From an uncultured Candidatus Saccharibacteria bacterium (lineage in GTDB: Bacteria; Patescibacteriota; Minisyncoccia; Phycocordibacterales; UBA9973), in contig CAZUUH010000001.1 in the NCBI GenBank assembly GCA_964623415.1, positions 1,305 through 65,304 on the forward strand: DNA of 64,000 nucleotides, in the 5' to 3' direction. This document shows, one piece after another, positions 3,653 to 19,533 of the stretch. Below the pieces are notes generated by a model. The model saw only the letters and a program-made list of their open reading frames with translations, was not told the DNA's origin and did no database searches. Numbering within the stretch: the stretch's first letter is position 1; every line of letters starts with the position of its first letter. The position numbers and the translations under genes are program-made.

Positions 3653-4099
3653 ATGGGAAAAGTAAAAATTATTACAAAAGAAGAAGATAAGGAAATTATA
3701 GCAGAAGAAAAAGTTTCAAATATTGTTCATTCTGTTAAAACACCAAAAAAGAAAATTGTTGCAGGAACATTACATGTTGAAGCTACTTTTAATAATACAA
3801 AAGTTGTCCTATCTGATAAAGATGGTAATACGTTATTTTGGACTTCTTCTGGTTCACTAGGTTTTAAAGGAGCTAAAAAGGGGACACCTTTTGCTGCATC
3901 AAAAGCTGGAGCAGTTATTGGAGAAAAAGCTAAAGCAATAGGTATAAAAGAAGTTGATGTAGTTGTAAAGGGGGTTGGTAGCGGTCGTGAGCCAACAATT
4001 CGTTCTTTTATGTCTTATGATATAGAAATTACAGGCATTAAAGACATGACACCAGTTCCTCACAATGGACCAAAACCAAAGAAACCAAGAAGAGTATAA
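3653..4099 (+). CDS. rpsK: 30S ribosomal protein S11
   Basis: GTLHVEATFNNTKVVLSDKDGNTLFWTSSGSLGFKGAKKGTPFAA is the S11 core motif. Confidence 0.92.
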   Translation: MGKVKIITKEEDKEIIAEEKVSNIVHSVKTPKKKIVAGTLHVEATFNNTKVVLSDKDGNTLFWTSSGSLGFKGAKKGTPFAASKAGAVIGEKAKAIGIKEVDVVVKGVGSGREPTIRSFMSYDIEITGIKDMTPVPHNGPKPKKPRRV

Positions 4100-6898: not shown

Positions 6899-6904
6899 AT
6901 TATA

Positions 6905-6942
6905 CAAAAATCAGAGACTTGAAAAAGTCTCTGATTTTTGTA
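6905..6942 (+). terminator. Intrinsic terminator after rpsI (14-bp stem aaaatcagagactt/aagtctctgatttt, loop gaaa, U-tail)
   Basis: Perfect inverted repeat read from the sequence, immediately after the rpsI stop. Confidence 0.6.
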
Positions 6943-6953
6943 TAATCTCTTAT

Positions 6954-7559
6954 ATGAAAGAAGAAAATAAAAATAAAACAATAATTAATGATTCAGAAAA
7001 TCAAATACAAGATGAAATTGTAAATGATTTAGAGTTTATTGAAACCAATGAAGAAGGGGAGTCTCTATTACCTAAAGATACAATCAAAAAATTAAAAGAA
7101 GAGATCAAGAATTTAAAAAAAGAAAAAGAAGAGTATCTTACTGGTTGGCAAAGAGCTAAAGCTGACTATATTAATTTACAAAAAGAATACGGAGATTCTC
7201 ATGCAAGAAGTTCTGTTTTAGTAAAAGAAAGATTTTTAAAAAGTTTACTTGCAGCAATAGATAGTTTTGATATAGCTTTTAAAAATAAAGAATCTTGGGA
7301 AAAAGTAGATAAGAACTGGCGAGTAGGTGTAGAATATATATATCAACAATTAATGACAGGTCTTTCTGATGAAGGAATAGATAAGATTGATGACATAAAT
7401 GCTAGTTTTGACCCTAAAATACATGAATCTGTTGATGTAGTAGAAACTAAAACAAAAGAACAAGATCATAAGATTGCAGATATAATACAAGTGGGGTACA
7501 AGATTGGTTCAAGAGTAATACGACCAGCTAGAATAAATATTTTTGAGTATAAAGATTAA
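6954..7559 (+). CDS. grpE: Nucleotide exchange factor GrpE
   Basis: Coiled-coil N-terminus, LTGWQRAKADYINLQKEY and a C-terminal IIQVGYKIGSRVIRPARI beta-domain are typical of GrpE. The ATG at 6954 follows the terminator; the track ORF start at 6708 overlaps rpsI and is spurious. Confidence 0.8.
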   Translation: MKEENKNKTIINDSENQIQDEIVNDLEFIETNEEGESLLPKDTIKKLKEEIKNLKKEKEEYLTGWQRAKADYINLQKEYGDSHARSSVLVKERFLKSLLAAIDSFDIAFKNKESWEKVDKNWRVGVEYIYQQLMTGLSDEGIDKIDDINASFDPKIHESVDVVETKTKEQDHKIADIIQVGYKIGSRVIRPARINIFEYKD

Positions 7560-8077
7560 ATAAATAAAGTTTTAATAAATTCTCTTCTTGTTTCTTCGTC
7601 TATTTTATCTGTAACCATTATCATTATTTCGGTTTTTAGACCAAGATCTTTTTTTATATTTGTAAATAAATGTTCGAATGGATAGATTGAAATCCAGACA
7701 GAATTTTTTATACAAACAAACTCGGCCTTCTTTAAAAGATAACGTAGCGCTTCACGTTCATTTTTTCTTTCTTCTGGAAGATCAAGCAATATTATTCTGA
7801 AATATCCATCCCATTCTGTTGAAACGAGACCATTTTCATTTTCTAAGTATAATTGATTTAGTTTATGCTTTCCTTCTTTGGTTAAGCGTATATATTCACA
7901 GTTATCTGATGAAATAGACTCAAGTAATCCATCTGCTTTCATATTTTTTATAGAACGAGAAATCGCATATTTATCCTTTGGGTTTTTGGTATTATTGTGT
8001 AATGTATCAAAAGGCACAGCTTTTTTCCCGGCTAATTTCTTTAAAATACCCCTAGAAATATTGGATTTTTTTACCAT
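7556..8077 (-). CDS. Putative transcriptional regulator: N-terminal winged HTH plus a C-terminal Cas2-like-fold (PaaX-type middle) domain
   Basis: The C-terminal RIILLDLPEERKNEREALRYLLKKAEFVCIKNSVWIS fits the Cas2/PaaX-middle-domain pattern (beta-strand with D, an Arg/Lys helix, G.r.Q.SV). It is a paralog of the gene at 15414..15914. It lies divergent from dnaK. Confidence 0.45.
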   Translation of the reverse strand: MVKKSNISRGILKKLAGKKAVPFDTLHNNTKNPKDKYAISRSIKNMKADGLLESISSDNCEYIRLTKEGKHKLNQLYLENENGLVSTEWDGYFRIILLDLPEERKNEREALRYLLKKAEFVCIKNSVWISIYPFEHLFTNIKKDLGLKTEIMIMVTDKIDEETRREFIKTLFI

Positions 8078-8110
8078 ATAATTATATTATAACATTTTAT
8101 TAGATATTAT

Positions 8111-8165
8111 ACAAGTATTTTGCGGTCACTAAATACTTGTCAAAAATAAAAGATTGGTATATACT
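8111..8165. promoter_or_regulatory. Palindromic operator (acaagtattt-N10-aaatacttgt) overlapping a sigma70-like promoter for dnaK (TTGTCA-17-TATACT)
   Basis: Perfect 10-bp arms at 8111-8120 and 8131-8140. The -35 is at 8137-8142, the 17-nt spacer follows, and the -10 is at 8160-8165. This sits in the divergent intergenic region between the regulator gene and dnaK. Confidence 0.45.
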
Positions 8166-8269
8166 TACTAAATAAAAGATTAAAAATATAAATAGCTCTT
8201 TCTTAAGACTATTAAGTTTTTAATTTATAAATTTAATAAAAAATTATTAGTTAATTTTATAAAAAATAT

Positions 8270-10159
8270 ATGAGTAAAATAATTGGTATAGACTTAGGTA
8301 CAACAAATAGTGCGGTTGCAATTATAGAAGGTGGTCAGCCTAAAATAGTTGAAAATATTGAAGGTGGAAGAACGACCCCCTCAATTGTGGCTATTTCAAA
8401 AAATAGTGATAGACTTGTTGGTTTACTTGCAAAACGTCAATCTGTAACAAATCCACAGAATACAATTTATGGGATTAAAAGATTTATGGGTCATATGTAT
8501 GATGATCCTGAAATTCAAAAAAACGCAACTACTGCTCCTTTTAAAATTCAAAAAGGTAAAGATGGGGGTGTAGAAGTAAATATTGGTGATAAGTGGTATA
8601 GACCAGAAGAAATTTCTTCAATGATACTTGCTAAGATAAAAGCAGATGTTGAAGCGAAAATTGGAGAGAAAATAACAGAAGCAATAATAACTGTTCCTGC
8701 GTATTTTAATGATGCTCAAAGAAAAGCAACTAAAGACGCTGGTATGATTGCTGGTCTTGATGTTAAAAGAATAATAAATGAACCTACAGCAGCAGCTCTT
8801 GCTTATGGATTTAACAAAAAGAAAAATGAACAAATTGCGGTTTTTGATTTCGGAGGTGGAACATTTGATATTTCTGTATTAGAGGTTTCAGATGATGTTA
8901 TTGAAGTTAAATCTACTGATGGAGATTCACATATGGGTGGTCGCGATATAGATCAAAAGATAGTGAATTGGCTAGCAGGTGAATTTAAAAAAGAATCTGG
9001 TATAGATATTACAAAAGATCCTTTAGCGTTACAACGTCTTGATGAAGCAGCTGAGAAAGCTAAGATAGAGCTTTCAACAACACTAGAAACAGAGATAAAT
9101 ATTCCATTTATAACATCAGATGCTAATGGGCCAAAACATTTATTGATTAAAATGTCTCGAGCTACACTTGAGTCTCTTGCAGAAGAATACATTAATCGTT
9201 CTATTGAAATAACAAAGCGCGCAATAGAAGCATCACCATTTAAGATTGAGGATATTGATGAGCTAATAATGGTTGGTGGTCAAACAAGAATGCCAAAGAT
9301 CATAGAAGAGGTTAAGAAATTATTTGGCAAAGAACCAAATCGTTCAATTAATCCAGATGAAGTTGTAGCACTTGGTGCTGCTATACAAGGTGGTGTTCTG
9401 CAAGGTGATGTTAGGGATGTATTGCTTCTTGATGTTATACCTCTTTCCTTAGGGATAGAAACACTTGGAGGTGTTTCAACAAAATTAGTTGAGAGAAACA
9501 CAACTATTCCTACTTCTAAATCACAAGTATTTTCAACTGCTGCCGATAATCAAACTTCTGTTGAAATTCATATAACTCAAGGAGAGAGACCGATGGCTTC
9601 TGATAATAAATCACTCGGAAGATTTATTTTAGATGGAGTTCCTCCTGCACCACGTGGTATGCCACAGATAGAAGTTACTTTTGATGTTGATGCAAATGGT
9701 ATATTAAACGTTAAGGCACAAGATAAAGCATCTGGTAAAGAGCAATCAATCCGTATTGAGGCAAGTTCTGGTTTAACAGATGCAGATATTAAAAAAATGA
9801 AAGAAGAAGCAGAATTACATGCTGAAGAAGACGCAAAAAAGAAAGAACTTGTTGATCAAAAAAATACAGCAGATATGACCATCTTTAATGCAGAAAAGAC
9901 AATAAAGGATTATGGAGATAAAATTACTCCTGAATTAAAAGCATCCGTAGAGGAGAAAATTAATCTTCTTAAGAAAGCTAAGGAAGGAACAGACCCTAAA
10001 GCTATTGATATTGCTACAGAAGAATTATCTAAAGAATTATCTAAAATTGGAGAAGTTATAAATAAAAATAATCCCAATAATGATAGTAATGAAAATAAAA
10101 CTCCAGAACAACAAGAACCAGAAATAAAAGATGCAGAAGTAAAAGAAGAAGGAAAATAA
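8270..10159 (+). CDS. dnaK: Molecular chaperone DnaK (Hsp70)
   Basis: [25 protein letters not shown] and [13 protein letters not shown] motifs match DnaK over the full length. Confidence 0.95.
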
Positions 10160-11311: not shown

Positions 11312-11400
11312 AATCCTTTACATATTTTACATTTTTGTTATTATTATAGATATTATTATTTTATTTCAGATGTTTGTTTAAATATCTGTATTTTAAAGAA

Positions 11401-12780
11401 ATGACTAAACGCTCAGTTGCTTCTAAAAAACTTTGGAAGCTTGGTGTTAGAGATTTTAATACTCAATATTTTGATTTTAATAAAGATGGTGATCTTATAG
11501 CAAAAGAAGGTAACAATGTCTACAATCTAAGATACTTAGCTGAAAAATTTGGCACATCGCTTGAAATTCTTTTCCCATATATAATTGAAGAGAGGGTTGA
11601 GGATTTACTTGATTTATCTGCTTCCATAATCAAAAAAATGAAATATCAGGGCAAGTTTTATTATCACTATCCAATGAAAGCAAATCAGACAAAAGAGGTT
11701 GTGATGGCTATGGTTGGTGAAGGTGCAAATATTGAAGTTTCTTCTTATAATGAACTTTATATTATAAAGAAAATGCTTGAGCAAGAATCTTTCAATGAGA
11801 GTATTCGTATTCTTTGTAATGGACCAAAAACTGATAAGTACATAAATCTAATTGATGAGCTTCAACACAGAGGGCTTAAGGTTATTCCTATAATAGAAGG
11901 ACCAAATGAATTAAAAACATTTCAATTTTCTAAATATGATGTTGGTATTAGATTAGATATTCCAATAAAATCAAAAGTAGATCCAACTAAGCAAGTTGAT
12001 AGATTTGGTTTTCCTAAACATGAAATTTTAAAAATGGAATCTTTTAAAAATTTAAAAATTCTTCATTTTAGACTTGGAAAATTAGAAAAAACTCATGATA
12101 TCCTTGAAACTGCGAAATATGCTATGGATGTATACGCTAGATTAAAAGAAAAAAATCCAAATTTGGATAGTATTGATATCGGGGGAGGAATGCCGATACC
12201 TTATGAAAGAAATAAAAAATATTCCACTGAAAAGATTTTAGAAAAACTTTTTGAAATGCTAAAAAGGGAAGCAGAAAAAAGAGAAATACCACATCCAAAT
12301 CTTATTTGTGAATGGGGTAAGTTTATGGTTGCACCAGCACAGATTACAATTTTTAAAGTTATAGATACTAAACCAATAAAGAATAAAAATATTAAAGCAA
12401 ATAAATGGTATGTTATTGATGGTAGTTTTATGAATGATCTTATTGACACATGGGGTCCACTTGAACAAAAATGGTTCGTAGCACCTCTTAGTAATAAGTT
12501 TGATAATAATCTTGAAGATGTTTGGATTTCTGGTTCTTCTTGTGATTCAGATGACATATATACAGGTATAGGTGAATCTATAACTTTACCAGATTATAAC
12601 TATGATGAAAATGAATCATTCTATATAGCATTTTTTGATACAGGTGCTTATCAAGATGCTCTTGCTTCACATCATTGTATGCTTTCATCTCCAATTAAAA
12701 TAATTGCAGAAAATGGTCATATTGTTGTTGCTCGTAAACGAGAAACACCAGAAGATGTAGGTAAAGAATTCGGTTGGTAA
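11401..12780 (+). CDS. speA: Biosynthetic arginine decarboxylase (fold-III PLP decarboxylase, SpeA-like)
   Basis: YHYPMKANQTKEVVMAMVGEGANIEVSS parallels the SpeA YPIKVNQ...GLEAGSK region. It sits next to the other polyamine genes. The track start at 11374 is TTG, so the ATG at 11401 is preferred. Confidence 0.65.
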   Translation: MTKRSVASKKLWKLGVRDFNTQYFDFNKDGDLIAKEGNNVYNLRYLAEKFGTSLEILFPYIIEERVEDLLDLSASIIKKMKYQGKFYYHYPMKANQTKEVVMAMVGEGANIEVSSYNELYIIKKMLEQESFNESIRILCNGPKTDKYINLIDELQHRGLKVIPIIEGPNELKTFQFSKYDVGIRLDIPIKSKVDPTKQVDRFGFPKHEILKMESFKNLKILHFRLGKLEKTHDILETAKYAMDVYARLKEKNPNLDSIDIGGGMPIPYERNKKYSTEKILEKLFEMLKREAEKREIPHPNLICEWGKFMVAPAQITIFKVIDTKPIKNKNIKANKWYVIDGSFMNDLIDTWGPLEQKWFVAPLSNKFDNNLEDVWISGSSCDSDDIYTGIGESITLPDYNYDENESFYIAFFDTGAYQDALASHHCMLSSPIKIIAENGHIVVARKRETPEDVGKEFGW

Positions 12781-12783
12781 ATA

Positions 12784-13872
12784 TTATTTTATATATCCTT
12801 TTTTGACTAACAATTCAGCATTTAAGATTCCTCCTCCTGCTGCCCCACGGACAGTGTTATGTGAGAGAGTGACAAATTTATAATCAAATATATTGCAATC
12901 ACGGAGTCTTCCTATTGTAACCGACATTGCTTTATCATTTCCTCGATCTTTTTTAGGTTGAGGACGATTTTCTTCTTCTGTATAAATTATTGGATTAATA
13001 GGAGCAAATGGAAGTTTTAATTCTTGTGGTTCACCTTTGAAATTTTTCCAAATTTTTATAATTTCTTCTTTTGTAGGCTTCTTATTTTTAAATTCTATAC
13101 TTACACAAGCAAGATGTCCGTCTGAAACTGGTACACGGGTACATGTAGCAGAAATTTTTAAATCTGTTTTATCTACAAATTTTCCATTTTTAATTTCTCC
13201 AAGTATTTTTAATGGCTCTTTCTCTGTTTTTTCTTCTTCACCACAGATAAATGGGACAACATTATCTATCATATCCAAACTTGCTACCCCCGGGTACCCA
13301 GCCCCTGAAACAGCTTGAAGGGTAGTAATAAATATACTTTTTATAGGGTAGCCAGCCTTATTTAGGGCATAAATAGGGGTTAAATAGCTCTGTAAGCTAC
13401 AATTTGGCTTAACTGCTATAAAACCCTTATCAAAACCTCTATTCTTCTTTTGGGCAGGAATTATATCTGTATGTTTGCTATTTATCTCTGGTATAAGCAT
13501 AGGGATATCAGATGTCCATCTATTTGCAGAAGCATTTGATACTACAGGTAAGCCAGCTTTAGCATATTCTTCCTCAGTCTTTTTTATTAATTCTTTATCA
13601 CTTATTTCAAAAGCTGAAAAAATAAAATCACACTTCTTTTTTGCTTTTGAAACATCTACGACATCTTCTACTATTAGGCTTGCAACTTCTTTAGGAATAG
13701 GTGAAGTCATTTGCCATCTGCCACTAACTGAATCTGAATATTTTTTTCCTTGAGAATTTGCTGAAGCGGCAACATAAGTCACACGAAACCAAGGATGATT
13801 CTCAAGTAAACGTATATAATTTTGTCCGACCATCCCTGTTGCACCCAATATTCCTACTTTAATTTTTTTCAT
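12784..13872 (-). CDS. asd: Aspartate-semialdehyde dehydrogenase
   Basis: N-terminal KVGILGATGMVGQ Rossmann motif, active-site-like NCSLQ, and a C-terminal RGAAGGGILNAELL. Confidence 0.7.
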   Translation of the reverse strand: MKKIKVGILGATGMVGQNYIRLLENHPWFRVTYVAASANSQGKKYSDSVSGRWQMTSPIPKEVASLIVEDVVDVSKAKKKCDFIFSAFEISDKELIKKTEEEYAKAGLPVVSNASANRWTSDIPMLIPEINSKHTDIIPAQKKNRGFDKGFIAVKPNCSLQSYLTPIYALNKAGYPIKSIFITTLQAVSGAGYPGVASLDMIDNVVPFICGEEEKTEKEPLKILGEIKNGKFVDKTDLKISATCTRVPVSDGHLACVSIEFKNKKPTKEEIIKIWKNFKGEPQELKLPFAPINPIIYTEEENRPQPKKDRGNDKAMSVTIGRLRDCNIFDYKFVTLSHNTVRGAAGGGILNAELLVKKGYIK

Positions 13873-13876
13873 ATTA

Positions 13877-15214
13877 CTATTTTATAAATTTCTTATAAAC
13901 TGCAGACATTATTTTATTTATATTGTCTGTTTTAATAACAGCCTCAATCCTGTAACAATCTTCATAATAGAAAGCACTTATAAGTAAATCTGCGCCTTTT
14001 TTAACCAGCAAATCGTTAAAGTTACTTACATCTTTAGCAGTAAACAATCCAACAAGATAAATCATACTAGCTTGTGTATTCTTAATATTTCTGATTTCAG
14101 ATTTTAATTCTTGTATTGCTTCTTCTAACTGTCCGTTCTTATTATCTACTATGATTTGGACACTATAGTTAGTATTACTTATAAGTGTCATATTAATTTT
14201 ATATTTTTTAAAGATATTACAAGCGGGAAGTAAGATTTCATTTAATTTCTTGTTCTCATCTGTTAGGAGTATAAAATTTAAATCCTTTTTAATACTTACG
14301 ATCTTTGCCCCTTTCTTTATTTTTTTATTATCACTGATAACTGTTTTTGCCTTAGGATCTATAATCGATGCTATCTCAATAGGGGTTTTAAACATTCGGA
14401 CGTAGGGGATAGCTTTGTCGTGTATAATCTTACCAGCTTCTTCGGCTTCATAATAATTTATAAACGGTATAGTTTTAGCTTTTTGTATTATTTTTGGATC
14501 TGCAGAAAGTACACCATCTACATCTTTCCATAGGATTATTTTATGAGCCTTAAGTGCTGCTCCTATAAAACAAGCTGTCGTATCTGTACCTCCACGACCT
14601 AGTGTAGTAATCTGCCCATCTTTTGTTATACCAGTAAAACCAGGTATAACTATTACATCTTTTTCTTCTTTTAATTTATTTAAAATATTTTTAGAAGATA
14701 TATCGTATTCTATGTTTGCATTCTTGAAATTGTCATCAGTAATTATTTTTATCTCTTCAGATAAGATTTTTTTAGATTTTATTCCAGAAGAATTTAAATA
14801 ATAATTAAAGATGATTGCTGAAATTTTTTCTCCAAATGAAACTATTTTATCTTCAAGTTCATTATCTATTTTATTTAATTTATTCAAATCTTTTTGGAGA
14901 AGAGATAACACATCTTTAATCTCTTGTTTAGCTTTTTCTGCATATTCGGAGGATAAATCGATATCACTTATTATAATTTCATGTTTAGTATATAGCTCCG
15001 TAACGAAATCATTTATAGCTCCTTCATTAAAATTTTCTTTTAAATTTTCAACAAAAGAAAGTAATTTATCTGTGACTCCAGGCATCGCAGAAACTACTGC
15101 TATGGGTAAATAACCAGATTTAATTTCTTCTTCGATTCTTTTCTTTATAAAAAGGATATATTCCTTTTTCAGAATTCCTCCACCAAATTTGTTGACAATA
15201 ACTTTCTTTGACAT
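13877..15214 (-). CDS. lysC: Aspartate kinase
   Basis: NKFGGGIL and TTLGRGGTDTTACFIGAAL...WKDVDGVLSADPKII amino-acid-kinase motifs, with a C-terminal ACT-like region. Confidence 0.75.
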   Translation of the reverse strand: MSKKVIVNKFGGGILKKEYILFIKKRIEEEIKSGYLPIAVVSAMPGVTDKLLSFVENLKENFNEGAINDFVTELYTKHEIIISDIDLSSEYAEKAKQEIKDVLSLLQKDLNKLNKIDNELEDKIVSFGEKISAIIFNYYLNSSGIKSKKILSEEIKIITDDNFKNANIEYDISSKNILNKLKEEKDVIVIPGFTGITKDGQITTLGRGGTDTTACFIGAALKAHKIILWKDVDGVLSADPKIIQKAKTIPFINYYEAEEAGKIIHDKAIPYVRMFKTPIEIASIIDPKAKTVISDNKKIKKGAKIVSIKKDLNFILLTDENKKLNEILLPACNIFKKYKINMTLISNTNYSVQIIVDNKNGQLEEAIQELKSEIRNIKNTQASMIYLVGLFTAKDVSNFNDLLVKKGADLLISAFYYEDCYRIEAVIKTDNINKIMSAVYKKFIK

Positions 15215-15376: not shown

Positions 15377-15412
15377 TGACACACTTTCTGCAGGTGCAGA
15401 GTTTGTGTCACT
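15377..15412. repeat. Left copy of a perfect 36-bp inverted repeat (tgacacactttctgcaggtgcagagtttgtgtcact), itself an imperfect palindrome
   Basis: Exact reverse complement of 15915-15950. It ends 1 nt before the ATG of the enclosed gene. Confidence 0.9.
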
Positions 15413-15413
15413 A

Positions 15414-15914
15414 ATGCATTTAAAGTATAATATTAATATGTCTATAGTAAGTGAAATATTAGAAGAACTTTGGAATACAGAATACAATTATAGAGGAGTA
15501 AGAGTAAATATTTTTGGTATACCTAAATTTAAAAAGTATTCACAAAGGAGTGTTCGTACGACGGTTGATCGTTTAAAGAAAAAAGGGATTATAGAAAAAG
15601 AGATTTCTGGGATAATTCTTTCAAAATATGGCAAAGAATATGTAAAAAGAAAATTCGATTCATTGAAACAATTCGAGAAACCAGAAAATATATCAAAAGA
15701 AAGAAAACTTCTTGTGATGTTTGACGTTCCTAGTGAAAGGAAAGGTGAGCGTGAGTGGCTACGTTGGCATCTAAAAAAATTTAATTATATTATGATTCAG
15801 CAAAGTGTTTGGGTTGGACCAGCTCCACTTCCAAAAGAATTCAGTAATTACCTTAAGGAAATTAAACTCGATAAATGTATTAAAACTTTTAAACTTGAAA
15901 AACCGTATAAATAA
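15414..15914 (+). CDS. Putative transcriptional regulator, wHTH + Cas2-like-fold (PaaX-type) domain
   Basis: KLLVMFDVPSERKGEREWLRWHLKKFNYIMIQQSVWVG aligns to the Cas2/PaaX middle-domain pattern, and the N-terminal half looks like a wHTH (VRTTVDRLKKKGIIEK). It is a paralog of 7556..8077. The track start at 15333 is GTG inside the repeat/terminator region, so the ATG at 15414 is preferred. Confidence 0.45.
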   Translation: MHLKYNINMSIVSEILEELWNTEYNYRGVRVNIFGIPKFKKYSQRSVRTTVDRLKKKGIIEKEISGIILSKYGKEYVKRKFDSLKQFEKPENISKERKLLVMFDVPSERKGEREWLRWHLKKFNYIMIQQSVWVGPAPLPKEFSNYLKEIKLDKCIKTFKLEKPYK

Positions 15915-15950
15915 AGTGACACAAACTCTGCACCTGCAGAAAGTGTGTCA
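15915..15950. repeat. Right copy of the perfect 36-bp inverted repeat, starting immediately after the stop codon and followed by T5
   Basis: agtgacacaaactctgcacctgcagaaagtgtgtca followed by ttttt. It can fold as a hairpin and so probably also terminates the gene. Confidence 0.9.
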
Positions 15951-16036: not shown

Positions 16037-17281
16037 ATGTCAAAAATATTAGTTATTGGTTGCGGAAATGTGGGAAGCGTAGGCTTGCACAAAATGGCTC
16101 AATTTCCGAAAGTTTTCTCCGAAATACATGTAGTAGGGAGAACTCTTTCGAAGTGTGAGGCTGTTGCCAAATCCGTCTTTAAAAGATTTAAAGTTAAATT
16201 ACATATTCATATTAGTGACGTAGGCAAGGGTGATAATTTCCTAAAATTACTTAAAGAAGTAAATCCGGAGTTGGTAGTAAACTGGGGAAGTCCTTATGAC
16301 AATCTAGTTGTTATGGATGCATGTTTGGAATATGGTGTTAGATATATTGATACAGCTTGTTATGAACATCCAGATAAATATGGTTTTTCATATAAATTAC
16401 AATTAGCTAAAAATGAAGCATATAAAAAGAAAAATCTTCTTGCTATTTTAGGTTGCGGTTTTGATCCAGGAGTTTCAAATATTTTTTCTGCTTATGCTCG
16501 TGATTATCTTTTTGATAAAATAGATACCATAGATATTTTGGATTGTAATGGTGGTTCAAAAGATGAAAGTATTAAATTTGCTCCAAACTTTGATCCAGAG
16601 ATAAATCTTCGCGAGCTTATTCTTCCTATCAAGTATTGGAAAGATGGTAAATGGCAAGAAAAAGGAAAACTTATTGATGAAGATGCTCCTTTCTTTGAAT
16701 TTAATTTTCCTGAGGCAGGGAAGTTCACCCCATACCTTATGTATCATGAAGAGCTTGAGACTATTCCAAGTCATATTCCTGGTTTAAAGAAAATTCGTTT
16801 TTGGATGACATTCTCAAAGAATTATCTTACATATCTTCGAGTCCTTTACAATGTTGGGTTAACTCGTATCGATGAGATTGATTACAATGGTAATAAAGTA
16901 ATCCCTGTAAAATTTTTGAAAGCTATCTTGCCTAAGGGAGAAGATTTTAATAGTGGATACGTGGGCAAGACAAATATTGGGAATATCATAACTGGAAAGA
17001 AGAATGGAAAGAAGAAAATGGTTTATATTTACAATGTTTGTGATCATAAAGAAGCATTTAAAGAAACTGGTGGTAATGCTATTGGCTATACAACAGCTAT
17101 TCCGACTGTTACTTGTGCAAAGCTTGTACTTGAAGGGAAATGGGGTGGAATTGGTGTTAAGAATACAGAGGATGAGTCACTTGATTCAAAAGTTTTCTTG
17201 GATGAAATGGCAAAAGTTGGGCTTACATGGCAAGTAAAGAATTTGAAAGATATCCCAGCCGCACTAAAGAAAAACTACTAA
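16037..17281 (+). CDS. Carboxy(nor)spermidine dehydrogenase/synthase (saccharopine dehydrogenase family)
   Basis: N-terminal ILVIGCGNVGSVGLHKMAQ Rossmann fold, about 414 aa, directly followed by the carboxynorspermidine decarboxylase gene. Confidence 0.75.
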   Translation: MSKILVIGCGNVGSVGLHKMAQFPKVFSEIHVVGRTLSKCEAVAKSVFKRFKVKLHIHISDVGKGDNFLKLLKEVNPELVVNWGSPYDNLVVMDACLEYGVRYIDTACYEHPDKYGFSYKLQLAKNEAYKKKNLLAILGCGFDPGVSNIFSAYARDYLFDKIDTIDILDCNGGSKDESIKFAPNFDPEINLRELILPIKYWKDGKWQEKGKLIDEDAPFFEFNFPEAGKFTPYLMYHEELETIPSHIPGLKKIRFWMTFSKNYLTYLRVLYNVGLTRIDEIDYNGNKVIPVKFLKAILPKGEDFNSGYVGKTNIGNIITGKKNGKKKMVYIYNVCDHKEAFKETGGNAIGYTTAIPTVTCAKLVLEGKWGGIGVKNTEDESLDSKVFLDEMAKVGLTWQVKNLKDIPAALKKNY

Positions 17282-17287
17282 AAAACA

Positions 17288-18475
17288 ATGTCTAATAACG
17301 AAAATATATTTATAGAGCCGTGGATTGAGAGAGATGTCTTTGCAGATGTTGATTTTTCGAAAGTTAAAACCCCGGCTTATATTGTGGGTGAAGAAAAGCT
17401 CGAGAATAATTTAAAGATTCTAAATAAAGTAGAGAAAGGAACTGGTGCTAAAATTCTGATGGCTATAAAAAGTTTTTCCATGTTTAAAGTTTTTCCTCTT
17501 GCTCGCAAATATCTTTCTGGTTCTGAAGCTAGCTCTGTAAATGAGGCGAAGCTTGGCCACACAAAGTTTGGAAAAGAAACTCATACCTTTTCTCCTTCTT
17601 ATACAAATAAAAATATAAAAGAATATTTAAAGTATTCAGATCATTTAGTTTTTAATTCATTTTCTCAGTGGAATAAATTTAAGGATGTCTGCAACGGAAA
17701 AGCTTCTTGTGGAATAAGAGTAAATGTAGAGCATAGCGAAACAGATAATCCTATGTATGACCCAAGTAGACCAAAATCACATTTTGGTGTAACTATTTCA
17801 AACTTTCAAAATGAGAACATTGAAGGTCTAGAAGGATTACATTTTCATAATCTTTGTGAATTAAATGCAGATGCACTGGAAAGAACCCTAAAAGTTTTCG
17901 AAGATAAATTTGGAAAATATTTAGCTAAAATGAAATGGGTGAATTTTGGTGGAGGGCATCACATAACTCGTAAAGATTATGATTTAGATTTACTTTATAA
18001 AACAATAAAAGATTTTAAAACAAGGTATCCTCATTTAGAGGTGTACTTAGAACCAGGAGAAGCTATCGCACTTAATGCTGGAGTCCTCGTGGGTAGTGTT
18101 GTAGATACTTTTAATAATGGTATAAATATAGCTGTTTTGGATGTTTCTCCTACTTGTCATATGCCAGATGTCATAGAAATGCCTTATTTACCTACTATTT
18201 TAGGGGCTAAATCGGCCACAGAGCGAAGTAGTGATATTTATCGCCTAGTAGGACCTAGCTGTCTTACTGGGGATGTAATAGGCGAATATTCTTTCAATAA
18301 ACCTTTAAAGGTTGGTGATAAGGTTGTGTTCTTGAACATGGCCATATATACTATGGTGAAAAATAATACTTTTAATGGAGTAAATTTACCAGATATTTCT
18401 TTATTAAATAAAAAAGGTAAAATAAAAGTAATTAAAAGTTTCGGATACGAAGATTTTAAGAATAGATTATCATAA
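17288..18475 (+). CDS. nspC: Carboxy(nor)spermidine decarboxylase
   Basis: Fold-III PLP decarboxylase of about 395 aa (AIKSFSMFKV, GGGHHIT). Length and context match NspC. Confidence 0.75.
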   Translation: MSNNENIFIEPWIERDVFADVDFSKVKTPAYIVGEEKLENNLKILNKVEKGTGAKILMAIKSFSMFKVFPLARKYLSGSEASSVNEAKLGHTKFGKETHTFSPSYTNKNIKEYLKYSDHLVFNSFSQWNKFKDVCNGKASCGIRVNVEHSETDNPMYDPSRPKSHFGVTISNFQNENIEGLEGLHFHNLCELNADALERTLKVFEDKFGKYLAKMKWVNFGGGHHITRKDYDLDLLYKTIKDFKTRYPHLEVYLEPGEAIALNAGVLVGSVVDTFNNGINIAVLDVSPTCHMPDVIEMPYLPTILGAKSATERSSDIYRLVGPSCLTGDVIGEYSFNKPLKVGDKVVFLNMAIYTMVKNNTFNGVNLPDISLLNKKGKIKVIKSFGYEDFKNRLS

Positions 18476-18480
18476 AAATT

Positions 18481-19533
18481 ATGGAAAATAAAAAAATATT
18501 AGAAGAAAAAATTTCAAATTTTAATCCAAACGAGAATGGTCTTTTCGAACATGGAATCTTTGGATTACCTTTTAATATAGAAGAATCCGAATTAGTACTT
18601 GTCCCTGTGCCTTGGGAAGCCACAGTTTCTTATGGAAGTGGTTCTTCAAAAGGACCAAAGACAATACTTGATGCTTCACAACAGATTGATTTGTATGATT
18701 CTATCTATCCAAATGGTTGGAAAAGGGGAATTGCTATGCAAGATATACCTACAGATATGTATTACGAGAATATGCAAGTCTGCAAGAAAGTTTCTACCTA
18801 TTTAGGAAGTTTTTTAACTGGAAATAAAGACGAAGCACTCCTAGAAGAGATAAATAATGACTGCAAGAATCTTAATAAACGTATTGAAGAAGTTGTAGAT
18901 GGACTTTTAAAAAAAGGAAAAATTGTTGGAATAGTGGGAGGGGATCATAGCTCTCCTTTTGGATATTTCAAATCTTTGGCAAAGAAATATAGAGAATTTG
19001 GGGTTTTATACATAGATGCTCACGCAGATCTTAGATGTGCATATGAAGGTTTTAATTATTCTCATGCTTCCATATTCCACAATGTTCTCTCTATCCCAAA
19101 CATTTCAAAATTAGTTCAAGTTGGAGTAAGAGATATAAGTGAGGAAGAAATGAATATCGTAAAAGATCAAAAAGATAGAATTAAGTTATTTTCTGATTAT
19201 GAAATTAAAAAGGAATTATTTGAAGGAAAAAGTTGGGCAAAAAAATGTGATGAAATAGTAAAAAATTTACCAAAGGACGTTTATATATCTTTTGATATCG
19301 ATGGTCTCGCTCCTTACCTTTGCCCAAATACTGGTACTCCGGTTCCAGGGGGTCTAGGGATAGATGAGCTGGTTTTCTTATTTGAAAAGATAATAGAATC
19401 TAAAAGAAAAATTATTGGTTTTGACCTTTGTGAAGTAGTTCCTGGTAAAGACGGAGATGAATGGGACGGAAACGTCGGCGCTCGCGTACTCTACAAGCTT
19501 TGTTTACTTGCATTAAAAAGTAATTCTTGTTAG
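18481..19533 (+). CDS. speB: Agmatinase (arginase/ureohydrolase family)
   Basis: GGDHS, DAHADL and SFDIDGLAP metal-binding motifs, in polyamine-gene context. Confidence 0.7.
   Translation: MENKKILEEKISNFNPNENGLFEHGIFGLPFNIEESELVLVPVPWEATVSYGSGSSKGPKTILDASQQIDLYDSIYPNGWKRGIAMQDIPTDMYYENMQVCKKVSTYLGSFLTGNKDEALLEEINNDCKNLNKRIEEVVDGLLKKGKIVGIVGGDHSSPFGYFKSLAKKYREFGVLYIDAHADLRCAYEGFNYSHASIFHNVLSIPNISKLVQVGVRDISEEEMNIVKDQKDRIKLFSDYEIKKELFEGKSWAKKCDEIVKNLPKDVYISFDIDGLAPYLCPNTGTPVPGGLGIDELVFLFEKIIESKRKIIGFDLCEVVPGKDGDEWDGNVGARVLYKLCLLALKSNSC

Follow-up and report, generated by a model that had tools for sequence, protein, structure and literature searches.

PaaX (TIGR02277 / COG3327) is a repressor of the paa genes that responds to phenylacetyl-CoA; it also represses its own gene, in competition with RNA polymerase (PMC9493321). 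Its operator has the form TGATTC-N27-GAATCA, its Cas2-like middle domain is a dimerisation module, and its C-terminal domain binds phenylacetyl-CoA (PMC9493321). The Hsp70 genes of other bacteria are controlled by different proteins. HrcA is a dedicated negative regulator in the grpE-dnaK-dnaJ neighbourhood and acts at CIRCE, a long inverted repeat in chaperone promoters of the sigma-70 type; hrcA is usually the first gene of a co-directional operon. HspR of actinobacteria, Helicobacter, and Deinococcus is a small, autoregulated repressor of the MerR type, the gene of which is the last in the dnaK operon. The HAIR element has the sequence CTTGAGT-N7-ACTCAAG, and the CtsR box has the sequence GGTCAAA-N3-GGTCAAA. 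To our knowledge, almost nothing is known about how genes are regulated in the Candidate Phyla Radiation (CPR); its ultra-small members cannot be cultured on their own, and very few transcription factors can be recognised in their genomes. Searches of the literature found no account of dnaK being regulated by a PaaX-like protein, nor of how Patescibacteria regulate their heat-shock genes.

The window (the whole 64-kb stretch of DNA that was analysed) contains a gene for a short, two-domain relative of PaaX, which faces dnaK across an intergenic region of 192 nt with a 30-bp palindrome (Table 1). Each sequence element described in the initial annotation is present, and the arrangement is conserved and coherent. 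The comparative data strongly support the reading of the protein, a member of the PaaX_M (Cas2-like) family, as a candidate for a repressor dedicated to dnaK(-dnaJ) and to its own gene in Paceibacteria.

Table 1 Positions of the genes, protein domains, promoter elements, and candidate operator of the regulator-dnaK locus in the window
Feature	Coordinates	Strand	Basis or remark
grpE, 201 aa	6954..7559	+	Translation and gene call with Pfam GrpE
Regulator gene, 173 aa, winged helix and PaaX_M (Cas2-like)	7556..8077	-	Open reading frame, Pfam, structural model, gene call
PaaX_M / Cas2-like ferredoxin-fold domain, residues 87-166	7580..7819	-	Most conserved part of the protein
N-terminal part of the regulator, probable recognition helix at residues 33-48	7841..8059	-	
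Extended -10 of the regulator promoter, TGTTATAAT	8086..8094	-	Read from sequence; conserved TA-AAT block
-35 of the regulator promoter, TTGTAT	8109..8114	-	4/6 bases belong to the proximal operator arm
Candidate operator, 30-bp dyad-symmetric, ACAAGTATTT-TGCGGTCACT-AAATACTTGT	8111..8140	.	
-35 of the dnaK promoter, TTGTCA	8137..8142	+	4/6 bases belong to the distal operator arm
-10 of the dnaK promoter, TATACT	8160..8165	+	17 nt from the -35
dnaK, 629 aa, presumed regulated gene	8270..10159	+	Translation and gene call
dnaJ, 361 aa	10226..11311	+	Translation and gene call

The gene grpE is the end gene of a string of ribosomal-protein genes and rpoA, and it converges on the regulator gene with an overlap of 4 nt. 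The divergent 173-residue reading frame that the initial annotation had placed between grpE and dnaK is present on the reverse strand and contains the peptide quoted there. An independent gene call on identical contigs returned the same genes, with matches to Pfam GrpE, PaaX_M, HSP70, and DnaJ, and again gave the regulator a length of 173 aa. The gap between dnaK and dnaJ is 66 nt, and dnaJ is presumably co-transcribed with dnaK. The regulator had also been described as occupying the position of HrcA. It does sit in the grpE-dnaK-dnaJ locus; however, the term is loose, because the regulator gene is divergent rather than the head of a co-directional operon. Whereas PaaX is linked to the paa genes, the regulator is linked to grpE, dnaK, and dnaJ.

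The regulator resembles PaaX in having a winged helix followed by PF20803. The match to PaaX_M (PF20803, 'PaaX central Cas2-like domain') in Pfam has E=2.3e-16 and a score of 60.1 bits, against a cut-off of 24 bits. The N-terminal half has only a faint match to MarR_2, and the N-terminal model of PaaX and the Pfam Cas2 model do not match the regulator at E up to 10. PaaX_C gives no Pfam match, and the protein stops seven residues past the PaaX_M match. The score against the PaaX equivalog of NCBIfam, TIGR02277, is 27.6 bits, whereas the cut-off of that model is 264.55. No match to HrcA was found in Pfam or NCBIfam. The regulator is a short relative of PaaX and not its orthologue, since the ligand-binding C-terminal domain of PaaX is absent: the protein lacks the five-helix domain PaaX_C and has no evident pocket for phenylacetyl-CoA.

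The AlphaFold model of the regulator, calculated with 69 homologues, has a pLDDT of 83.7. The modelled N-terminal half is a winged helix-turn-helix, with helices at residues 7-15, 23-26, and 33-48, a beta hairpin at 52-65, and a helix at 67-79; the prediction is in agreement with the winged helix suggested in the initial annotation. Residues 93-172 are modelled as beta-alpha-beta-beta-alpha-beta-alpha, which comprises the ferredoxin-like beta-alpha-beta-beta-alpha-beta fold of the Cas2 type and a single terminal helix at the C-terminus. Modelled by itself, the C-terminal domain has a pLDDT of 92. Its best fold match is PaaX of E. coli, followed by Cas2 proteins, and the closest folds in the PDB to the regulator are those of PaaX (8a39, 3l09, and 3kfw). 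The assignment of the C-terminal domain to the pattern of Cas2 and the PaaX middle domain thus agrees with both the Pfam score and the fold comparison. A search of PDB sequences with the family profile gave no significant match, indicating that the relation to PaaX and Cas2 structures is visible by fold comparison only.

In the alignments, the C-terminal domain is conserved more strongly than the DNA-binding half. Its invariant residues include W89, D90, R94, D99, E102, R104, K105, E107, R108, the run R112-Y-L-L-K-K-A118, F120, C122, K124, N125, and others. In the region of the recognition helix, Y37, A38, R41, S42, K44, and N45 are invariant. The Cas2-like domain is probably a dimerisation or sensor module. 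Speculatively, its near-invariance would be consistent with contact to a highly conserved partner, for example DnaK.

The palindrome in the intergenic region is perfect, ACAAGTATTT-N10-AAATACTTGT, as had been annotated. The candidate operator is long and dyad-symmetric like that of PaaX, yet its sequence differs from the TGATTC-N27-GAATCA of PaaX. It is the sole match in the 64 kb at up to three mismatches, whereas 0.01 matches are expected from shuffled sequences. A position weight matrix of related sites gives the site in the window a score of 46.8 and the runner-up position a score of -10.5, which is below that of the best shuffle, so that the window has no second copy. To compare related loci, one genome per species was scanned and the best 80 of 304 loci were kept. 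Each of these 80 loci contains exactly one copy of the operator, of which that of locus L040 is divergent, and no further copies were found in the flanks of the loci. The consensus of the operator family is ACAAGTATTT-n-GYGRYCRC-n-AAATACTTGT, and positions C2, A3, G12, G14, C17, C19, A22, and G29 are invariant across the 80 loci.

Metagenome contigs were scanned with the motif TTTNGYGRYCRCNAAATACTTGT. Among the 120 matches listed, 111 are in the regulator-dnaK locus. The other nine are chance matches to half-sites inside coding regions of unrelated, GC-richer organisms, and seven of them are in a single aldo-keto-reductase-like gene of GC-rich organisms. No copies were found in viral contigs. 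Within the sequences examined, the operator is specific to the regulator-dnaK intergenic region. Since no further copy occurs there, the regulator appears to be a dedicated regulator of dnaK(-dnaJ) and of itself rather than a global heat-shock regulator.

The arms of the operator overlap the promoters of both genes. The near-consensus promoter TTGTCA-17-TATACT, reported previously for dnaK as overlapping the right arm, is present at 8137-8165. In an operator-anchored alignment, positions 27-32 are conserved, and a block similar to TATAAT is conserved in the same phase as the -10 of dnaK in the window. A dnaK-side promoter derived from the operator arm was found in 64 of the 80 loci. On the opposite side, the promoter of the regulator reads TTGTAT-17-TGnTATAAT, and its -10 ends 8 nt before the ATG at 8077, so that the transcript would begin at the ATG or a few bases from it and be leaderless or nearly so. 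A conserved 'CA' at -17/-16 of the anchored alignment corresponds to the TG of this extended -10. Among the 60 loci with a clear start of the regulator gene, 45 have a regulator-side -10 at 16-18 nt from the arm-derived -35, and in 56 the gap between the operator and the ATG of the regulator is 30-34 nt. The arm-derived -35 together with the extended -10 explains both this fixed spacing and the conserved 'CA'. The TATAAT at 8106-8111, which abuts the site, was considered as the -10 of the regulator and rejected: its key A(-11) is poorly conserved, and the element at 8086-8094 fits the spacing better.

The arrangement on the dnaK side is less uniform, and the distance from the operator to the ATG of dnaK varies from 26 to 864 nt. 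In about one-fifth of the loci the dnaK-side form of the promoter is missing, dnaK starts 26-45 nt past the site, and a promoter TTGACA-18-TATACT is positioned on the regulator side. In these loci the site would sit in the leader of dnaK. It is also possible that an alternative promoter, TTGACA-18-AATACT, is embedded within the site.

The reading that is probably correct is that the regulator is a dimeric factor that binds the palindrome at 8111-8140 and serves as a dedicated, autoregulated repressor of Hsp70. The locus combines a DNA-binding domain with a dyad site over core promoter elements, and both are conserved. A dimer of the regulator would bind the 30-bp palindrome, the outer arms of which, ACAAG and CTTGT, would each contribute to the -35 hexamer of one of two divergent promoters. 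The bound dimer would cover both -35 boxes, exclude RNA polymerase, and shut off the promoters of dnaK-dnaJ and of the regulator. PaaX exerts autorepression by competition with RNA polymerase, and the same mode of action may apply to the regulator. Release of the repressor would be expected under proteotoxic stress; an intrinsically heat-labile fold could bring it about, or else feedback by a conserved partner, which might be DnaK as in the case of HspR. The initial annotation had recognised in the locus the geometry of an autoregulated repressor and its operator, and had proposed a non-canonical heat-shock regulator. The domain composition and fold, the geometry, the conservation of synteny, site, spacing, and promoter boxes, and the uniqueness of the site are seen, whereas binding of the site by the regulator, repression, and the response to heat are what we infer.

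The position of the site would also permit activation of dnaK, for example by recruitment of RNA polymerase near the -35. The operator extends from about -61 to about -32, counted from the putative start of dnaK transcription, a region in which some activators bind. However, its centre, about 46 bp upstream (near -46.5), is off the usual phases of class I/II activators, which are typically -41.5 and -61.5. The dnaK promoter is already near-consensus and conserved (TTGTCA-17-TATACT/TATAAT) and needs no activator, the -35 of the regulator's own promoter also lies within reach of a protein bound at this site, and the homologous PaaX is a repressor. Activation is therefore unlikely. Repression is the likelier direction of regulation because a near-consensus dnaK promoter would need a brake and no activator, and because of the mode of action of PaaX.

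The gene is conserved next to dnaK in related genomes, a check that the initial annotation had proposed. The regulator is head-to-head with dnaK in 79 of the 80 loci (best 80 of 304), and the palindrome is present in all 80. At the remaining locus the contig ends 178 nt upstream, and the gene order past that point is off the contig. Two members of the family with 32-37% identity to the regulator were traced to their contigs. The first faces an operon of grpE-dnaK-dnaJ. The second faces grpE, which is followed by an HD-domain gene and by a gene of 620 aa that is cut by the end of the contig; this operon reads as grpE-HD-dnaK. That the distant members face operons starting with grpE indicates that the link to Hsp70 genes outlasts changes in gene order. 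The intergenic sites of these members are ACAAGTATTT-N10-GAATTGTTGT and ACAAGTTTTT-N10-AAAATCTTGT, which keep the outer arms ACAAG-N20-(C/G)TTGT and differ in the centre. Judged from the sequences compared, the set of regulator, dnaK, and operator is conserved across hundreds of species of Patescibacteria/CPR.

The fixed distance of the operator to the ATG of the regulator and its variable distance to that of dnaK (26-864 nt) could indicate that the regulator acts on itself or on a distant target only, and that its adjacency to dnaK is inherited gene order. This is quite improbable, since the head-to-head link to Hsp70 is kept through a change of gene order down to 32% identity, and the -35 and -10 on the dnaK side are phased with the distal arm in the 64 loci mentioned above. 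Furthermore, paralogues of the regulator elsewhere are in quite different contexts, which indicates that the linkage to dnaK is specific to this clade and not a habit of the family.

The coincidence of the outer arms with -35-like hexamers raises the alternative that the 30-bp element is part of the promoter architecture, the site of another factor, an RNA thermometer, or a terminator. However, the invariant centre G-Y-G-R-Y-C-R-C has no role in a promoter, and the element is upstream of both putative transcription starts. In 130 distinct sites, the symmetric positions 13/18 of the operator are C-G in 37, T-A in 38, C-A in 27, and T-G in 28. The two positions thus assort independently and show no sign of selection for base pairing, in line with a site that protein binds as double-stranded DNA. 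Rfam gave no match in the region, and the folding of the leader (8172-8275) is no better than that of shuffled sequences (z -1.44). A hairpin or RNA element was rejected on these three grounds. In the distant clades the site and the protein change together, and the locus of a paralogue shows the same geometry with a separate site. The probability that the element has one of these other functions is accordingly low.

It is extremely unlikely that the regulator is a Cas2-type nuclease or toxin: the Cas2-like fold, the naming of some family members as such by the NCBI pipeline, and the invariant D99 at the end of the first strand, which is the place of the metal-binding Asp of Cas2, are outweighed by best profile and fold matches to PaaX, the lack of a Pfam Cas2 match, a full winged helix fused to the Cas2-like domain, and neighbours (grpE and dnaK) that include no cas gene or antitoxin-like partner. 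Cas2 is a stand-alone protein of about 90 aa encoded near cas1/CRISPR, whereas the regulator, which has no association with cas1 or CRISPR, differs from Cas2 and VapD ferredoxin-fold proteins in carrying the domain as a fusion next to chaperone genes.

In Paceibacteria (Patescibacteria/CPR), the candidate dnaK repressor would take the place that HrcA-CIRCE or HspR-HAIR has in other bacteria. The absence of CIRCE upstream of dnaK, stated in the initial annotation, holds for the whole window at up to three mismatches. In 1.76 Mb of related loci, none of the promoters had a CIRCE at up to four mismatches, and HAIR and CtsR boxes gave only scattered two-mismatch matches off promoters in the same 1.76 Mb. 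Approximate probes for groEL, groES, the N-terminus of HrcA, and clpB had no match in the 1.76 Mb of dnaK-local sequence. In its presumed role the regulator-operator pair is like HrcA-CIRCE in combining a dedicated negative regulator in the grpE-dnaK-dnaJ neighbourhood with a long inverted repeat in a chaperone promoter of the sigma-70 type. In contrast to HrcA-CIRCE, the protein family and the site are unrelated, the gene is divergent and not the first of the operon, and the sequences examined showed no site at groESL. The likeness to HspR-HAIR is that of a small repressor tied to the dnaK operon and autoregulated, although autoregulation is presumed for the regulator; feedback through DnaK is a plausible logic common to both. 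Unlike HspR, the regulator is not of the MerR type, its gene is not the last of the dnaK operon, and its locus contains no HAIR. The regulator and its operator look like a previously undescribed Hsp70 switch.

The regulator fits an unnamed family of Patescibacteria proteins of about 170-200 aa, which have two domains, a short winged helix-turn-helix and PaaX_M. A word-indexed search returned 1890 relatives with lengths of 170-195 aa; among the best 120, identity to the query is 56-100%. The relatives all contain PF20803, and those with names are from Nomurabacteria, Paceibacterota, and Patescibacteria. An exhaustive search at E up to 1e-3 found 1753 members among cluster representatives at 50% identity. 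The alignments show a family signature, WDG.WR...D.PE..K..R..LR..L...F....S.W..P, which is present in the regulator. Distant paralogues, with about 27-30% identity, occur several per genome beside unrelated genes, among them those for RmuC, surface proteins, and gap/pentose-phosphate metabolism. The NCBI pipeline often labels these paralogues 'CRISPR-associated endonuclease Cas2'.

A second PaaX_M protein is encoded in the window itself, at 15438-15914 (158 aa, PaaX_M 47 bits). The gene has its own 30-bp palindrome, ACACACTTTCTGCAGGTGCAGAGTTTGTGT, at 15379-15408, which stops 29 nt upstream of the ATG; immediately past the gene, at 15919-15948, the palindrome occurs again as an exact copy in inverted orientation. 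The promoter reads TTGTGT-17-TATAAT-6 nt-ATG, with the same geometry as at the dnaK regulator. The gene precedes an operon for polyamine synthesis, with genes similar to those of saccharopine dehydrogenase and Orn/DAP decarboxylase and a gene for agmatinase. Four orthologues (74-86% identity) have the same pair of sites, which share the core ACAAAnTCTGCAnnTGCAGAnTTTGT and have outer bases specific to each genome. This second locus supports the notion, based on sequence comparison, that each member of the family may use a long palindrome of which one arm doubles as the -35 of its own promoter.

A wider reading, which is put forward tentatively, joins these observations: the clade would be the heat-shock repressor of Hsp70 in Paceibacteria, with the almost invariant Cas2-like domain as its sensor, and would belong to a major, lineage-specific family of CPR transcription factors. 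The sensor could be a client or partner of DnaK, providing feedback by chaperone titration, or a heat-labile dimerisation module. The CPR family would be autoregulated from leaderless genes by palindromes of 26-30 bp, the arms of which double as -35 elements. If true, this would be a fourth, structurally unrelated solution to the repression of Hsp70, alongside HrcA, HspR, and CtsR.

For a core stress gene, the locus provides a candidate pair of regulator and operator that is concrete enough to test: a 173-aa protein, a 30-bp site with eight invariant bases, and two defined promoters. E. coli or an in vitro system would suffice for such tests, so that cultivation of the organism is unnecessary. 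Characterisation of the family corrects the recurrent mislabelling of its members in databases as Cas2 endonucleases. With the dnaK repressor proposed here, the few known bacterial repressors of chaperone genes would gain a new protein family, and it would be shown that the Cas2-like fold has been reused as a regulatory module without the ligand domain of PaaX.

The window encodes a second member of the wHTH plus PaaX_M family, a protein of 158 aa. The sequence TGACACACTTTCTGCAGGTGCAGAGTTTGTGTCA is present as two exact inverted 34-bp copies, one on each side of the gene. The upstream copy overlaps the TTGTGT-17-TATAAT promoter of the gene, which has a leaderless geometry. Both flanking sites are retained in the orthologues at the related loci L125, L010, L047, and L012, and in most of these the outer bases of the two copies agree within one genome. 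The bracketing of the gene by two sites could reflect looping, a roadblock, or a cassette.

The gene is located between two sets of metabolic genes, which together form a polyamine (carboxyspermidine-type) pathway cluster adjoining the chaperone locus.

Coordinates of features in the window and of example copies of the structured repeat in related loci (L numbers)
Feature	Position	Strand	Remark
Terminator-like hairpin	6899-6946		20-bp stem; 3' of rpsI
Arginine/ornithine-decarboxylase-like gene, asd, aspartate kinase	11374-15214		directly 3' of dnaJ
Second wHTH plus PaaX_M family gene, 158 aa	15438-15914	+	whole region 15377-15950
Paired sites around the 158-aa gene	15377-15410 and 15917-15950		exact inverted 34-bp copies
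Putative polyamine operon	16037-19533		downstream of the 158-aa gene; saccharopine-DH-like, Orn/DAP-decarboxylase-like, and agmatinase genes
~105-nt repeat	L027:3364-3468	-	
~105-nt repeat	L078:2754-2858	-	
~105-nt repeat	L078:5539-5645	+	
~105-nt repeat	L130:5513-5617	-	

The stop codons of the converging grpE and regulator genes overlap by 4 nt (TTAA, 7556-7559) with no terminator between them, and therefore each transcript would run antisense into the other gene. At its other end, grpE is appended to the string rpsM-rpsK-rpsD-rpoA-rplQ-rplM-rpsI. The hairpin that follows rpsI contains a TTGAAA-16-TATAAT promoter-like site that ends 8 nt before the grpE ATG (6954), so that a promoter of the leaderless type may drive grpE as well. 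This hairpin and promoter region contains no copy of the operator.

A structured repeat of ~105 nt, found in related loci, forms a three-way junction of a long closing stem and two hairpins, with compensatory changes in 21 of the 30 pairs. The 80 genome loci (the best 80 of 304) contain 31 copies, located in the leader of dnaK, between dnaK and dnaJ, or in the regulator/grpE spacer; in metagenome loci, the lysC-asd spacer also holds the repeat. Copies occur in either orientation. The repeat has no match in Rfam and resembles an intergenic element of Paceibacteria of the REP/MITE or terminator type. In the window, its covariance model (R1) identified no copy; only the short hairpin TAGCTCTTTCTTAAGACTA is present, at ~8194-8212.

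In the related locus L113 (Ga0116171_10003604), the entire grpE/regulator/dnaK/dnaJ locus appears to be present twice in mirror orientation, with a junction at ~7128 and two sites, at 3736 and 10499. The doubling is probably a palindromic assembly artefact rather than a real duplication.

Many proteins of the wHTH plus PaaX_M family (among them P0307, P0347, P0353, P0358, and P0367) are publicly annotated as 'CRISPR-associated endonuclease Cas2'. Since the gene neighbourhoods examined for the proteins so named contain no cas genes, the naming looks like a systematic misannotation of the family.
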